Shown here piece by piece: positions 30,721-38,963 of a stretch of 64,000 nt of DNA; within the stretch, counting starts at the first letter, position 1, and each line of letters starts with the position of its first letter. The notes under the pieces were generated by a model. It saw nothing but the letters and a program-made list of their open reading frames with translations. It was not told where the DNA came from and ran no database searches. This DNA comes from Escherichia coli (lineage in GTDB: Bacteria; Pseudomonadota; Gammaproteobacteria; Enterobacterales; Enterobacteriaceae). Position numbers and translations under genes: made by a program. The stretch is taken from assembly GCF_003334305.1 (NCBI RefSeq), contig NZ_QOWS01000007.1; one strand, 5' to 3'.

Positions 30721-32082
30721 TCAGAAGAACAGTGACGGATCGCCCGCCCGTTTGGTCAGGCGACCGTTTGCCATAATGCCCATGCTTTCCAGCCAGCGTT
30801 CAAACTCTGGTGACGGGCGCAGGTTGAGTAACTGACGCACAGTGGCGGTATCGTGGAATGCGGTGGTCTGGTAGTTGAGCATGATGTCATCACCCAGCGG
30901 CATCCCCATGATGTAGTTGCAGCCTGCGGTGGCGAGCAGGATCATCAGGTTTTCGTTGAGGTTCTGGTCAGCGTCAGCGTGGTTGGTGTAGCAGCAGTCA
31001 CAGCCCATAGAGATGCCGCTCAGCTTGCCCATAAAGTGATCTTCTAAGCCAGCACGGATAATCTGGCGGTCGTTGTAGAGATACTCCGGCCCAATAAAGC
31101 CGACCACGGTGTTGACGATAAACGGATCGTAATGACGCGCCAGCCCATAGTTACGTGCTTCCATCGTCACCTGGTCAGCGCCGAAGTTAGCGCCAGCGGA
31201 TAGCGCAGAGCCTTGTCCGGTTTCGAAGTAGAGGCAGTTTTCCCCGGCGATACGGTTGAACTCTGCACCCACTGCGCGCGCTTCGTCGAGCATCGCCAGT
31301 TCCACGCCAAACTCTTTCAGCCCTTTTTCGCTGCCACAGATACTCTGGAAAATCAGTCCGCCAGGCGCGCCGCGACGAATCGCTTCGATCTGGGTGGTGA
31401 CGTGCGCCAGTACGCAGCCCTGAGTTGGGATGTTGAATTTGTCGATCACGCCGTAAATGGTGTCCAACACGCGGCTTAAGTTTTCCACGTCGTCAGTCAC
31501 CGGGTTAACGCCGATCACCGCATCGCCCACCCCGAAGGAAAGCCCTTCGTAGATTTGCGCGGCGATACTTTGCACGTCGTCACGGGTGTCATTTGGCTGC
31601 AAACGGGCGCTGAAGGTGCCCGGAATACCAATGGTGGTATTGGCCTTTTTGATTACCGGCATTTTCTTCGCGCCGTAGATCAGGTCCGCGTTGGAGCAAA
31701 TCTTCGCTACCGCCGCGACCACTTCCGAGGTCAGCCCTTTGCGGGTAAAGGCAATGTCGTCCACGCTGGTTTCATCGCTCAGCACATACTCACGCAGTTC
31801 GCTGATGCTCCAGTTTTTAATCTGGTTGTAGGCCGTTTCGTTAACATCGTCCTGAATCAGCCGCGTCACGCAGTCATCTTCATAGGCAATCACCGGATTA
31901 TTGCGGATGTCCGCTACGGTCATTTCCGACAACACCTGCTTTGCCGCCACGCGCTCCTGTGAGCTTGCCGCTGCAACGCCCGCCAGCACATCCCCCGAAC
32001 GCAGTTCGTTGGCTTTAGCCAGCACCTCTTTTACATCCTTAAACTGATATACATTGCCGAACAATGTGGTCTTTAGTTTCAT
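30721..32082 (-). CDS. eutB: Ethanolamine ammonia-lyase large subunit
   Basis: 453-aa ORF matching E. coli EutB. Confidence 0.97.
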   Translation of the reverse strand: MKLKTTLFGNVYQFKDVKEVLAKANELRSGDVLAGVAAASSQERVAAKQVLSEMTVADIRNNPVIAYEDDCVTRLIQDDVNETAYNQIKNWSISELREYVLSDETSVDDIAFTRKGLTSEVVAAVAKICSNADLIYGAKKMPVIKKANTTIGIPGTFSARLQPNDTRDDVQSIAAQIYEGLSFGVGDAVIGVNPVTDDVENLSRVLDTIYGVIDKFNIPTQGCVLAHVTTQIEAIRRGAPGGLIFQSICGSEKGLKEFGVELAMLDEARAVGAEFNRIAGENCLYFETGQGSALSAGANFGADQVTMEARNYGLARHYDPFIVNTVVGFIGPEYLYNDRQIIRAGLEDHFMGKLSGISMGCDCCYTNHADADQNLNENLMILLATAGCNYIMGMPLGDDIMLNYQTTAFHDTATVRQLLNLRPSPEFERWLESMGIMANGRLTKRAGDPSLFF

Positions 32083-32093
32083 AAGTCGTTCCC

Positions 32094-33497
32094 TCAGGAA
32101 GGAAATGCGAGTGATTTCACCGTCACCGGCACAACCGATCCGCCAAAAAGAGGCGTACCAATGTCGATATAGTCCCCCGCGCGGACAATCACTTCGTCAA
32201 TGACTGCCAACGGGAGTTGTTGTAGCTGTGGGCGCAACAACATGCCCAGAGCTTTACCAAAGTCCTGCCCGGCCACCACCAGCAGGGGATGCGGATTCGG
32301 AAAACGCGCGACGAAATCGACCAGCGCGTTGATGACCGTCAGTACCGCGGCGTAACGCACAGGCAGCGAGGCGGGAAGCGCCAGCACGTACGCGTCAGTT
32401 TTGGGATCAAGATCCAGCTGAAGCAGCGCCTGTTGCCAGGCACTCACCAGATCCGTTTCATCAATCGGGATCGCCACCGGCAAATTGCGCAGCGGCAGTT
32501 GTACGCCCTCCAGCCAGATTGTGCTGCCAGAGAGCGAAAGGGTATGTGCACCCGCGCCAATCACCGTGGCGCGTACGGTTTGCGCCGGAAACTGCACATT
32601 CATCTCACGCAGGCGCGGATGGTCATGCAGCGCCGTTGCCAGAAGTGGGCCAATATCGGCAAAACAGAACGGGTCGGCGGGCTGGTGGCGATAACATTCG
32701 CCCACGCCTCCAGAAAGCGTAATGATTTCGGGCGTAACACCTGCGGGCAGCAAACCGGTTTGCATCAATGCCTGCGCGAGCGGCGAAAGCGTTCCGTCAA
32801 TCACTTCGACAATCAGCGCCGCCATCCGCCGGGTAACCTGCACCAGCTGCGCGCCGGTCAGCGAACGGGCGTCAGTGCCTGCACCGAAGCACTCATCCAC
32901 AATCATCTGCCCCGGTTTATGAGCGTAAACCACGCGCCCCTGGCTGTCGGTTTCCAGCAGGCGACCACCGACGTTGAGACAGGCAGTGCCGCTGATTTTT
33001 CCGGCATCGAACAGGGCGTAGTTCGCGGTGCCACCGCCGATGTCGATATTCAGTACCCGACACAGCCGTTGTTCAGAAAGGGTTTGCGCCCCAGCTCCGT
33101 GACCGGCGATCACGGATTCGAGGTGCGGCCCGGCGCTGGCAACGACAAAATCCCCCAGCGATTGAGAGAGCGCCATCACCGCCGGGCGAGCATTGCGGGT
33201 TTTCGCGCTTTCACCGGTGATGATGATGGCACCAGAATCAACGCTTTCCGGCGCAATACCCGCAGCCTGATATTGCTCGAGTATTAAGGTTTTCAGTTCC
33301 GCTTCTTTTAAACCGCCCTGTTTATCGACAGGGGTAAAGAACACCGGACTTTGCCAGCTAATTTCGCGTTTAATGAATTCGTAGCGCGGCACCTGCGACA
33401 CCGCCGCACGGTTAACCAGCTCCAGGTGGGAGAAAATCACCTGGGTGGTGGTGGTGCCGATATCGATACCGACGCTCAATAGCTGGCGAGTGTTCAC
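32094..33497 (-). CDS. eutA: Ethanolamine ammonia-lyase reactivating factor
   Basis: 467-aa ORF matching E. coli EutA; only 11 bp separate it from eutB. Confidence 0.96.
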   Translation of the reverse strand: MNTRQLLSVGIDIGTTTTQVIFSHLELVNRAAVSQVPRYEFIKREISWQSPVFFTPVDKQGGLKEAELKTLILEQYQAAGIAPESVDSGAIIITGESAKTRNARPAVMALSQSLGDFVVASAGPHLESVIAGHGAGAQTLSEQRLCRVLNIDIGGGTANYALFDAGKISGTACLNVGGRLLETDSQGRVVYAHKPGQMIVDECFGAGTDARSLTGAQLVQVTRRMAALIVEVIDGTLSPLAQALMQTGLLPAGVTPEIITLSGGVGECYRHQPADPFCFADIGPLLATALHDHPRLREMNVQFPAQTVRATVIGAGAHTLSLSGSTIWLEGVQLPLRNLPVAIPIDETDLVSAWQQALLQLDLDPKTDAYVLALPASLPVRYAAVLTVINALVDFVARFPNPHPLLVVAGQDFGKALGMLLRPQLQQLPLAVIDEVIVRAGDYIDIGTPLFGGSVVPVTVKSLAFPS

Positions 33498-34720: not shown

Positions 34721-34750
34721 CGCCTTTACTCCCTGTTAGTTGTTATTTAT

Positions 34751-34836
<86 letters not shown>

Positions 34837-36860: not shown

Positions 36861-38264
36861 TTAAACAATGCGAAACGCATCGACTAATACACAGCGACGC
36901 AGACGGACAAACGTCCGCGCGCTGGTTACCCCTTCACCGGTTGGCGTGGTGATGGTCATGGTGGTCCAGCCTTCCCCGCCCAGCCCCAGCCCGGCAATGC
37001 ACGGTCCGTTCTTAACGAAAATGCTGGTATCAATGGCGTTCGCCATCTGGTTCATGTTTTCGATATTGCGCGAGTGCATTGCCGCCGTGTGGTGGCAACC
37101 GCCCTCCAGTTTCACCGCCAGCGCAATGGCATCCGCCACGTTGGCGACGCGCACGACGGGCAGCACCGGCATCATCAGTTCGGTCACGGCAAACGGATGT
37201 TCTGCAGTGGTTTCCACAAACAGCAAACGCGTTTCTTGCGGCACGTTCAGGCCGATTGCCGCCGCGATTTTCGCCGCATCGCGACCAACCCAGTCACGGC
37301 TGACGGTGCCTTTTCCGCGCTCGTCGATATTTTTCAGCAACACCGGTTGCAGCTGCTGCGCCTGTTCTGCGGTCAGTTTCACCGCGTGCTGGCCTTCCAT
37401 CAGACGCATCAGTTCATCGGCTACGCTATCAACAACAATCAGTACCTTTTCGTCGGCACAAATGATGTTGTTATCGAAAGAAGCGCCTTTGACGATGGAC
37501 TGAGCGGCACGGGCGAGGTCGGCGGTTTCATCCACCACTACCGGCGGGTTGCCAGCGCCTGCGGCAATCAGACGTTTATTGGTGTGTTTACGCGCCGCTT
37601 CTACTACCGCTTCGCCGCCGGTTACCACCAGCAGGCCGATACCCGGAAACTTGAACAAGCGTTGCGCGGTTTCGATATCCGGATTTGCCACAGTAACCAG
37701 TAAGTTTTCCGGCCCACCTGCGGCAACAATCGCCTGGTTGAGCAGCGTAATCGCCCGCTGGGAGACTTTTTTCGCCGCCGGATGCGGGGCAAAAATGACG
37801 CTGTTGCCCGCGGCAATCAGGCTGATGGCGTTATTAATTACGGTTGCCGCCGGGTTAGTGGACGGAGTTACCGAAGCCACCACGCCCCAGGGTGCGTTTT
37901 CAATTAGGGTCAGGCCGTTGTCGCCAGTCAGCACTTGCGGAGAGAGGCACTCAACGCCTGGTGTGCCGCGCGCCTGAGCGACGTTTTTTGCAAATTTATC
38001 TTCAACGCGCCCCATGCCGGTTTCACTGACGGCAAGTTCCGCTAAATCTCTGGCGTGTTTTTCGCCTGCTTCACGAATGGCAGCAATGGCTAACTGGCGC
38101 ATTGCCACGCTTTTTAACCCTTGCTGGGCGACTTTGGCTGCCGCAACGGCGTCATCCAGGGACGCGAAAACGCCCATCTCATGAACGGCGGCGGACGGCG
38201 TGTCACTGCTTTGCATTTTCAGCAGTACCGCTTTCACCACCTGTTCAATATCCTGTTGATTCAT
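36861..38264 (-). CDS. eutE: CoA-acylating acetaldehyde dehydrogenase
   Basis: 467-aa aldehyde dehydrogenase-family ORF matching E. coli EutE. Confidence 0.96.
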   Translation of the reverse strand: MNQQDIEQVVKAVLLKMQSSDTPSAAVHEMGVFASLDDAVAAAKVAQQGLKSVAMRQLAIAAIREAGEKHARDLAELAVSETGMGRVEDKFAKNVAQARGTPGVECLSPQVLTGDNGLTLIENAPWGVVASVTPSTNPAATVINNAISLIAAGNSVIFAPHPAAKKVSQRAITLLNQAIVAAGGPENLLVTVANPDIETAQRLFKFPGIGLLVVTGGEAVVEAARKHTNKRLIAAGAGNPPVVVDETADLARAAQSIVKGASFDNNIICADEKVLIVVDSVADELMRLMEGQHAVKLTAEQAQQLQPVLLKNIDERGKGTVSRDWVGRDAAKIAAAIGLNVPQETRLLFVETTAEHPFAVTELMMPVLPVVRVANVADAIALAVKLEGGCHHTAAMHSRNIENMNQMANAIDTSIFVKNGPCIAGLGLGGEGWTTMTITTPTGEGVTSARTFVRLRRCVLVDAFRIV

Positions 38265-38275
38265 GATGTTCTGCC

Positions 38276-38563
38276 TTATTTGTGGAAAATTACCTGACCG
38301 CCAGACACCACCTCATCGACAATGCCAATCACGCACAGATCGACCGGTGACGTTTCGCTTTTATGCGCCTGGCGGGCGGAACTGCCACTCACCAGTAACA
38401 CCCACTCCCCGGTTCCCGCGCCAATATTGTCGATGGCGACGGCGCATTGCCCGTCAGGATTACCTTGTGGATCAATCATTTCCACCATCAGCAATTTGTC
38501 ATGCGCCAGTCCGTGATGGCGTACGGTACAAACAATTTGTCCAGTGACGACTGCCAGTTTCAT
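38276..38563 (-). CDS. eutN: Eut microcompartment vertex (pentameric) protein
   Basis: 95-aa EutN/CcmL-family ORF with GGAGG RBS; matches E. coli EutN. Confidence 0.95.
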   Translation of the reverse strand: MKLAVVTGQIVCTVRHHGLAHDKLLMVEMIDPQGNPDGQCAVAIDNIGAGTGEWVLLVSGSSARQAHKSETSPVDLCVIGIVDEVVSGGQVIFHK

Positions 38564-38669
38564 ACCCGCCTCCGTGGCGTATTTCAGGTAAAAGCTCCCC
38601 CTACCCTCCGCAGAAGGTAAAATGAAAAAGGAGAGAGCGTGACGCCCGAATCGACGTCACACAGGGTGA

Positions 38670-38963
38670 TTACAGGTTGCTGCTATCGCCTTTCAGGCCG
38701 ATCGGGAAGACTTCTTCCAGGTCGCCGTGCGGACGCGGGATAACGTGTACAGATACCAGCTCGCCGATACGCTGTGCCGCTGCGGCACCTGCATCGGTCG
38801 CGGCTTTACAGGCTGCAACATCACCACGAACCATGGCAGTACACAGGCCGCCGCCAATCTGCTTAACACCAACCAGCTTGACGCGCGCAGCTTTCACCAT
38901 CGCGTCAGAAGCCTCAATCAGTGCAACCAGGCCCCGGGTTTCGATCATTCCTAATGCTTCCAT
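38670..38963 (-). CDS. eutM: Eut microcompartment major shell protein (hexameric BMC)
   Basis: 97-aa ORF from [28 protein letters not shown]; the track's 14-codon extension is rejected. Confidence 0.95.

Follow-up and report, generated by a model that had tools for sequence, protein, structure and literature searches.

A conserved, locus-specific RNA structure in the eutM–eutN intercistronic spacer of Escherichia coli

We analysed a stretch of 64,000 nucleotides of the Escherichia coli chromosome (contig NZ_QOWS01000007.1, assembly GCF_003334305.1; hereafter the window), focusing on the spacer that separates eutM, the gene of the major shell protein, from eutN, the gene of the vertex protein, in the microcompartment operon eut. 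The operon comprises 17 genes on the minus strand and runs from eutS (about 42318) to eutR (27533). Of 5426 complete E. coli genomes, 5409 match a 451-bp probe spanning the site with an identity of 95% or more, and the two genes are annotated in them as eutM and eutN. An initial annotation of this DNA had drawn attention to a gap of 106 bp and to an inverted repeat inside it, and had suggested that a stem-loop could set the high ratio of shell to vertex protein. The coordinates of the open reading frames (ORFs) bear out the gap (Table 1), and a pattern match places the two arms of the repeat where they had been described, gtgacg at 38639-38644 and cgtcac at 38655-38660 on the plus strand. The operon had been called otherwise tightly coupled. 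This is true of most junctions, which overlap or span 9-20 nt, but a second large gap, between eutG and eutH, had been missed; the eutD–eutM and eutK–eutR junctions also fall outside this range (Table 2). We report here that the eutM–eutN spacer is a conserved, unannotated and locus-specific RNA structure, and we propose a model for its action in segmental expression of the operon.

Table 1. Features of the eutM–eutN region and of the second large gap. Positions are those of the window; RBS, ribosome-binding site; MFE, minimum free energy; REP, repetitive extragenic palindrome.
Feature	Position	Strand	Description	Basis
eutM	38670..38963	-	major hexameric shell protein, 97 aa; stop UAA 38670-38672	ORF and translation; RefSeq eutM
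eutM–eutN intercistronic spacer	38564..38669	-	106 nt	
Hairpin 1	38662..38637	-	GUGUGACGUC-GAUUCG-GGCGUCACGC; 10 bp including 2 G.U, 6-nt loop; core is gtgacg/cgtcac	
Pyrimidine/U-rich tract	38619..38636	-	UCUCUCCUUUUUCAUUUU, immediately 3' of hairpin 1	
Hairpin 2	38635..38595	-	outer helix CUCUCCU/GGGGGAG; inner hairpin UACCUUC-UGCG-GAGGGUA	
A/U-rich motif	38593..38580	-	UUUUACCUGAAAUA; between hairpin 2 and eutN RBS; unpaired in MFE and centroid structures	
eutN translation initiation region	38564..38579	-	CGCCACGGAGGCGGGU-AUG; strong Shine-Dalgarno GGAGG 38569-38573, predicted base-paired	
eutN	38276..38563	-	pentameric vertex protein, 95 aa; start codon 38561-38563	ORF and translation; RefSeq annotation
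eutG–eutH gap	34721-34836	-	116 nt; two hairpins with typical REP sequence; MFE -44.4 kcal/mol, z -2.7	

Folding of the spacer RNA, which had been put forward as a check on the initial annotation, confirmed a stem-loop and extended it: the repeat lies at the centre of a longer hairpin of 10 bp just 3' of eutM. Hairpin 1 begins 8 nt past the eutM UAA, with seven nt intervening, and 6 of the 10 pairs of its stem are G-C. On its own it folds with -16.2 kcal/mol (z = -4.4), and 0 of 200 shuffled sequences fold equally well. A single nucleotide separates it from hairpin 2, whose own energy is -16.8 kcal/mol. The two hairpins jointly reach -34.3 kcal/mol (z = -5.75) and the whole 106-nt spacer has an MFE of -43 kcal/mol (z = -3.2). 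The tract UCUCUCCUUUUUCAUUUU is a poor U-tract in which U and C alternate, with 4 U in the first 8 nt; within it, CUCUCUCC supplies the 5' strand of hairpin 2's outer helix. The eutN Shine-Dalgarno sequence (SD) lies at the opposite end of the spacer from the inverted repeat. By our estimate, a bare 6-bp inverted repeat is expected about 0.7 times by chance in 106 nt (any hexamer, 4-34 nt loop); chance does not account for the longer stem or for its conservation.

How widespread is this structure? A single EutN scan over GTDB species genomes yielded 48 loci, 42 of which have a eutM-like gene directly upstream. A eutM–eutN spacer of 52-211 nt is present in 42/42 of these proteobacterial loci. 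Among the 39 enterobacterial spacers, 24 carry a GTGACG-type hairpin, 14 carry REP elements and one, that of Intestinirhabdus, has a different GC-rich hairpin; the GTGACG-type hairpin and REP are never found together. The hairpin type occurs in Escherichia, the Citrobacter freundii group, Citrobacter sp. R56, NCU1 and Awk4, Klebsiella spallanzanii, four Buttiauxella, Entomohabitans and Yokenella. The REP type, with one to three elements per locus, is found in Salmonella, K. pneumoniae, K. oxytoca, K. michiganensis, K. grimontii, C. amalonaticus, C. koseri, C. sedlakii, Pseudocitrobacter and Pluralibacter. The remaining three loci are non-enterobacterial (Pseudomonas, Rhodocyclaceae and Pseudothauera), and their spacers are GC-rich and strongly structured. 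The scan also returned three EutN of enterobacterial type (87-100% identical) on contigs of 269-466 bp from assemblies labelled Gemelliphila palaticanis, Prolixibacteraceae bacterium and Caballeronia mineralivorans (L018, L032 and L043), which are most likely contaminating enterobacterial reads. Within Klebsiella, K. spallanzanii combines a spacer of the Escherichia/Citrobacter hairpin type with an E. coli-like EutM C-terminus (97.9% identity, same final codons), while K. oxytoca, K. michiganensis, K. grimontii and K. pneumoniae (L028-L030, L035) combine a REP-type spacer with a EutM end of the 95-residue type. This contrast suggests recombination or horizontal exchange of an operon segment.

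As a neutral yardstick we took the identity to E. coli at the four-fold degenerate sites of eutM and eutN, which is 0.56-0.66 in Citrobacter and K. spallanzanii and 0.44-0.53 in Buttiauxella and Entomohabitans. In the loci of these four genera the arms of hairpin 1 are identical to E. coli at 15-16 of 16 positions. The loop shares 0-3 positions and ranges in length from 4 to 29 nt over all hairpin-type spacers, and the 9 nt preceding the stem match at 1-7 positions. Since the arms are near-identical where neutral sites are only 44-66% identical, and the loop is free to change, this comparison shows that hairpin 1 is under selection. The initial annotation had named lack of conservation in other eut operons as grounds for giving up its idea; the stem proved to be nearly invariant in Escherichia, the C. 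freundii group, K. spallanzanii, Buttiauxella, Entomohabitans and Yokenella, with REP hairpins elsewhere. The position is conserved too, the core of hairpin 1 starting 6-9 nt past the eutM stop in all hairpin-type species. Yokenella has a spacer of 52 nt that keeps hairpin 1 and is devoid of hairpin 2. After hairpin 1, Escherichia, Citrobacter and K. spallanzanii share the tract as CUCUCUCCUUUU, Buttiauxella has a degenerate form of it and Yokenella has none. Further downstream, the segment containing the A/U motif is identical at 9-13 of 13 positions over the hairpin-type spacers, including those of Buttiauxella and Entomohabitans, where UUUUACCUGAA(A/U) is nearly invariant even though the flanks have diverged; it is absent from REP-type spacers. 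The motif at 38580-38593 might be where RNase E enters or cleaves, or else a standby site for ribosomes. At the SD, CGGAGG is invariant in 22 aligned hairpin-type sequences and GGAGG is present in most REP-type spacers as well.

An RNAalifold consensus contains hairpin 1 and a small hairpin at the SD, together with the two helices of hairpin 2. In the underlying sample of 21 sequences, which has a strong phylogenetic structure, 98% of the cells at consensus pairs are paired, versus 42-65% with slid partners. Compensatory change is seen at 9 pairs versus at most 2 in the slid controls, part of the count in hairpin 2 being dependent on the alignment, as the Buttiauxella rows align poorly there. 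Hairpin 2 holds most of the covariation and 8 of its 12 pairs change on both sides; ACCUUC/GAGGGU becomes GCCCUC/GAGGGC in K. spallanzanii (L042) and GUUCUC/GAGAGC in two other loci (L007 and L009). In hairpin 1 all 8 consensus pairs are kept in 21/21 sequences and seven never vary, the variable pair, 16-41, being C-G in 9, U.G in 7 and U-A in 5 sequences. At the base of the stem Yokenella has A-U where G-C is found elsewhere. In C. freundii the change to GACGCC/GGCGUC retains the pairing from arm to arm while palindromy within each arm is lost. Together with the U.G wobbles, this change points to an RNA structure and argues against a DNA operator.

These comparisons bear on two further explanations. 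It might be supposed that the spacer is functionless, a relic boundary or insertion-tolerant gap whose repeat arose by chance or from a decayed mobile element. The chance expectation of a 6-bp repeat would agree with this, as would the insertion of REP elements and, in one strain, of IS911 at this site. The near-complete identity of the arms against a neutral background of 44-66%, beside a freely varying loop, the compensatory changes of hairpin 2, the single-copy nature of the sequence and the retention of a spacer in every one of the 42 loci all speak for function, and we regard its absence as extremely unlikely. We give equally little credence to the idea that a regulator recognises the sequence of the arms GTGACGTC / GRCGTCAC, in DNA or in RNA and for instance as two TGACGTCA-like palindromes, in place of a passive structure. 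The stem sequence is indeed invariant rather than covarying across genera, and in several species the 5' arm is a perfect palindrome, GTGACGTCAC in four loci (L007, L009, L012, L042) and TGACGTCA in Buttiauxella and Entomohabitans. However, the spacing of the half-sites varies over 4-29 nt, the changes preserve arm-to-arm pairing and not palindromy (GACGCC/GGCGTC in C. freundii), and the U.G wobble of 7/21 sequences works only in RNA.

Natural variation was sampled within E. coli and sister Escherichia. The polymorphisms are U20C in the loop of hairpin 1, U58C in the tetraloop and U48G in the internal loop of hairpin 2, C40A at the terminal pair of the outer helix and the loss of one G from the G5 run of the same helix. 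Three thus lie in loops and two in the outer helix of hairpin 2, and none of those sampled falls in the stem of hairpin 1 or the inner stem of hairpin 2. Two strains stand apart. In E. coli 90-1 (L051; NZ_CP050047.1, 4386910-4387588) the IS3-family element IS911 is inserted after spacer nt 79, in CUUU|UACC, leaving hairpins 1 and 2 with eutM and parting them from the eutN RBS; this strain is a natural mutant. In E. coli NZRM4169 (L049; NZ_CP032789.1) eutN is annotated as a frameshifted pseudogene, while eutM is intact and so is the spacer, save for C40A and U58C.

The element does not correspond to any family that we searched for. In sensitive blastn searches the 106 nt are present in 5408 of 5426 E. 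coli genomes, at a median of one place per genome and at most 2, and no RefSeq feature is annotated in the spacer of those genomes. Against Rfam 15, a permissively filtered cmscan of positions 38200-39100 (both strands) had no match at E<=10. A motif scan for the REP core, GCC(G/T)GATG...CATC(C/A)GGC or GCCGGATAAG, an imperfect palindrome of about 35 bp, found it neither in E. coli nor elsewhere among the GTGACG-type spacers; the 14 other spacers do contain it. A dispersed repeat family was rejected, the spacer being single-copy in E. coli as against hundreds of REP copies per genome. A sigma-70 scan found no internal promoter in the spacer and one match inside eutN (9/12). A small ORF was likewise rejected: a 19-codon frame with a GUG start runs through hairpin 1, has no SD and is broken in Citrobacter by loop-length differences that are not multiples of three. 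On the plus strand, a 34-aa ORF at 38639-38743 lies antisense to eutM. Pairing of a hairpin arm with the CGUCAC of eutN codons 5-7 was discarded as well, as this hexamer also occurs in REP-type loci and is missing in hairpin-bearing Buttiauxella. The sole other GTGACG...CGTCAC inverted repeat in the window (49431-49475, plus strand, 33-nt gap) is probably due to chance. Literature searches, one of them loosely constrained and hence no rigorous negative, found no relevant description of a eutM–eutN terminator or hairpin and no mapping of transcript 3' ends under eut-inducing conditions.

Table 2. Junctions and published expression along the eut operon. Gaps are from ORF coordinates; RPKM, reads per kilobase per million, adherent-invasive E. 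coli (AIEC) LF82 in minimal medium (basal) and induced with bile salts (PMC6379400); protein, relative amounts in E. coli K-12 on ethanolamine (PMC11334477).
Gene	Gap to next gene (nt)	RPKM, minimal	RPKM, induced	Protein
eutS	12	20	76	11
eutP	overlap	39	166	7
eutQ	overlap	24	192	100
eutT	overlap	13	83	
eutD	38	108	357	10
eutM	106	55	177	96
eutN	11	5	62	1
eutE	10	14	149	27
eutJ	overlap	13	147	
eutG	116	35	168	7
eutH	overlap	106	514	
eutA	11	36	223	
eutB	20	61	358	37
eutC	9	47	286	24
eutL	about 12	30	126	39
eutK	45	37	94	8
eutR		142	308	

Published expression data (Table 2) change at this same boundary. EutM is the most abundant shell protein in the proteomic values (PMC11334477). From eutM to eutN the RNA drops 2.9-fold under induction and 11-fold under basal conditions, and eutN has the lowest RPKM of the 17 genes in both (PMC6379400). 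The RNA of eutD and eutM stands above that of the neighbours on either side, the profile that accumulation of a segment ending at the hairpins would give. RNA-seq of enterohaemorrhagic E. coli gives fold changes only, and no relative levels along the operon. In the published data, RNA and protein thus both drop at eutN.

Does the RNA stop at hairpin 1? Together with the U-rich tract, this hairpin could form a partial intrinsic terminator after eutM, which would lower eutN and all later genes. Like such terminators it has a G+C-rich 10-bp stem, as a terminator requires, a short loop and a U-containing tract. A permissive consensus scan flags it (10-pair stem, 6 G-C, tail UCUCUCCUUU), the hairpin runs into a pyrimidine/U tract in Escherichia, Citrobacter and Buttiauxella, and beyond the drop at eutN the basal values of eutE and eutJ remain as low as 14 and 13 RPKM. 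The tail, however, alternates between U and C, the tract being broken by C at every second position, and there is no U-tract in Yokenella (CCCAGAUUCG) or in the REP-type replacements. Moreover, the drop is non-polar. On induction eutE, eutJ and eutG (about 147-168 RPKM) match eutM, while eutH, eutA and eutB are higher, which is the opposite of a polar stop, and downstream genes are not persistently lower. This recovery of the downstream RNA makes a strong terminator improbable. In addition, eutR is the last gene of the operon and must be read through for autoinduction. We therefore consider termination at hairpin 1 an unlikely explanation of the spacer, although not a negligible one.

At the protein level the step is much steeper. 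The EutM:EutN ratio of about 100 is far above the RNA ratio, and EutE, encoded 11 nt downstream of eutN, is 27-fold above EutN. These two disparities require a eutN-specific limit at translation or protein stability. The eutN SD, GGAGG, is located 5 nt before the AUG. Its predicted unpaired probability in a -60..+60 context is 0.06, the lowest of the 17 eut genes (0.24-0.64 for the others), and its predicted opening energy of 14.3 kcal/mol is the third highest, behind eutR and eutJ. The predicted pairing varies by species, involving a local GCC/GGC hairpin in some and codons 13-17 in others. The predicted occlusion of the SD appears a likelier cause of low EutN than hairpin 1. A part for the spacer RNA in differential expression is plausible, given the conserved hairpin and the fall in RPKM from 177 to 62 and from 55 to 5. 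The more specific proposal that the stem-loop sets the shell-to-vertex ratio is unsupported as formulated: a 3' hairpin affects everything downstream, yet EutE stands at 27 and eutE RNA at 149 RPKM. On its own, the hairpin cannot produce that ratio.

It is conceivable that the spacer serves mainly in translational control of eutN, possibly through CsrA acting on GGA motifs, with hairpin 1 incidental or a mere insulator. The proposed motifs lie in hairpin 2 and in the loop of the SD hairpin, ACGGA. The long spacer uncouples eutN from eutM, the eutN SD is predicted to be the least accessible of the 17, EutN is present at about 1% of EutM and about 4% of EutE with RNAs that differ only about 2-3-fold, and both spacer types conserve the SD together with its flank. 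Such control does not account for the best-conserved part being hairpin 1, which lies about 60 nt upstream of the SD, or for its retention by Yokenella in a 52-nt spacer that has no hairpin 2. The helices that occlude the SD are not conserved in detail, and CsrA binding is a conjecture from short motifs common to any strong SD. As a full account of the spacer we find this quite unlikely.

Based on these observations, we propose that the spacer is a structured intercistronic RNA whose hairpins block 3' exonucleases and in which the eutN SD is held in structure. We put the probability of this model at roughly 0.55. Hairpins 1 and 2 would form right behind the ribosome that terminates at the eutM stop and would stack together; as the core of hairpin 1 begins 6-9 nt past the stop, it lies outside the translated region. 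Cleavage or decay of the transcript may start in the single-stranded A/U stretch after hairpin 2, where G-C/G-UUUUA fits the loose preference of RNase E, a match expected by chance. The compact hairpin 3' end generated in this way would then block PNPase and RNase II, which proceed 3'-to-5', and some polymerases perhaps also terminate at the hairpins, which would act as a leaky terminator. As an outcome, the mRNA segment ending at eutM would outlast the adjoining downstream RNA and there would be extra eutM-proximal message. The 3' part of the spacer would uncouple eutN from eutM translation and sequester its SD in structure, yielding very little EutN. Poorly translated, the eutN RNA would be less shielded from RNase E and might on that account fall below that of eutE. 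The replacement of the hairpin by REP in other lineages fits a need for some stable hairpin at this position.

Several points weigh against this model. The barrier function at the eutM–eutN site is inferred by analogy with other operons, and the presence of REP in the spacer may merely reflect a gap that tolerates insertions. The drop in RNA is taken from a single study designed for another question and from the RPKM of a 287-bp gene. Neither RNA nor protein of eutS, eutP and eutT exceeds that of downstream genes, which implies that any stabilised segment is short, covering eutD-eutM and not the whole 5' half of the operon. Folds of -35..+75 from 16 species gave no convincing covariation for a conserved SD-sequestering helix. 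Finally, the stem of hairpin 1 is near-invariant and hardly covaries, which fits sequence-specific recognition equally well.

Such recognition has been considered in its own right. The stem GUGACGYC/GRCGUCAC, essentially invariant across enterobacterial genera whose neutral sites are near-saturated, might be a sequence-specific element, and a dedicated factor that binds it, as RNA or as DNA, could couple the expression of shell, vertex and enzyme proteins to compartment assembly. The shell protein EutK has a C-terminal domain that binds nucleic acid, and this domain or a global RNA-binding protein could be the factor. If true, an autoregulatory loop would exist within the microcompartment operon. 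We mention this as a speculation with a slim chance of being correct.

How does the structured-spacer model compare with known systems? REP elements and bacterial interspersed mosaic elements (BIMEs), such as that of malE-malF in E. coli, resemble the eutM–eutN arrangement in placing a stable stem-loop a few nt 3' of the stop codon of the stronger upstream gene, and REP elements occupy the very same eutM–eutN position in Salmonella, most Klebsiella, C. amalonaticus, C. koseri, C. sedlakii, Pseudocitrobacter and Pluralibacter. REP hairpins are the classic stabilisers of upstream mRNA (Newbury et al. 1987, listed in PMC7509114). The E. coli element differs in that it has no REP consensus, is single-copy, and has a covarying second hairpin and an A/U motif. 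Intercistronic hairpins are also reported to confer segmental mRNA stability in the puf operon of Rhodobacter (Belasco et al. 1985; Klug & Cohen 1990) and in papBA of E. coli (Baga 1988; Nilsson & Uhlin 1991), all listed in PMC7509114. In both, as in eut, the gene of an abundant structural subunit (antenna protein and major pilin, here EutM) is followed by hairpins, with downstream genes of lower stoichiometry on scarcer RNA; the RNA-seq drop at eutN agrees with this arrangement. In puf and pap, half-lives, processing sites and RNase E dependence were measured, whereas the eut element is known from sequence and RNA abundance, and eut RNA recovers two genes downstream, so that any effect would be local. 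The likeness to stabilising elements lies in the structure, in a suggestive RNA-seq profile and in the position, with a stable hairpin in the untranslated gap 3' of the more highly expressed cistron. Hairpins between eut genes are further known from the eut loci of Enterococcus, Clostridium and Listeria, in the form of ANTAR (EutV) terminators. The E. coli spacer, unlike these, has no tandem hexaloop pair bearing the ANTAR loop signature; the loops of hairpin 1 span 4-29 nt and share no conserved sequence. In enterobacteria, EutR and not EutVW controls eut.

Three observations concern other parts of the operon. The second large gap, eutG–eutH (Table 1), contains REP-like hairpins, GCCGGAUGCGACGC...GCGUCUGAUCCGGC and GGCGGAUAAGGCG...CGCCGCAUCCGCC, and eutH, directly downstream, has the top RPKM of the operon in the published RNA-seq (514). 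This might mean that a 5' end is stabilised in that gap, or that a promoter lies within it. The reading frame of eutM stays open for 14 codons further upstream (38964-39005, minus strand), and an ATG at 39005 would give a protein of 111 aa that overlaps the end of eutD. RefSeq has the 97-aa form and the AIEC study gives eutM as 335 bp; the size of the eutD–eutM gap in Table 2 thus depends on the start chosen. Between eutA (32094-33497) and eutB (30721-32082) there are 11 nt, and the operon is uninterrupted in the window; in E. coli K-12 MG1655 it is interrupted by the CPZ-55 prophage.

What are the implications for the biology of microcompartments? A single microcompartment operon has to yield very unequal amounts of shell hexamers, vertex pentamers and enzymes, and those who engineer Eut and Pdu compartments usually rebuild the ratios by trial and error. 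What is new here is this element; the principle of the intercistronic hairpin is itself long familiar. Segmental-stability hairpins have been known since the 1980s, and our model, if confirmed, would broaden an established mechanism and not uncover another. The lineages with a hairpin and those with REP constitute a natural experiment, which suggests that some stable hairpin is wanted between these two genes. As a defined and conserved RNA element placed where the major shell gene gives way to the vertex gene, the spacer may offer an easily testable handle on the stoichiometry of the compartment.

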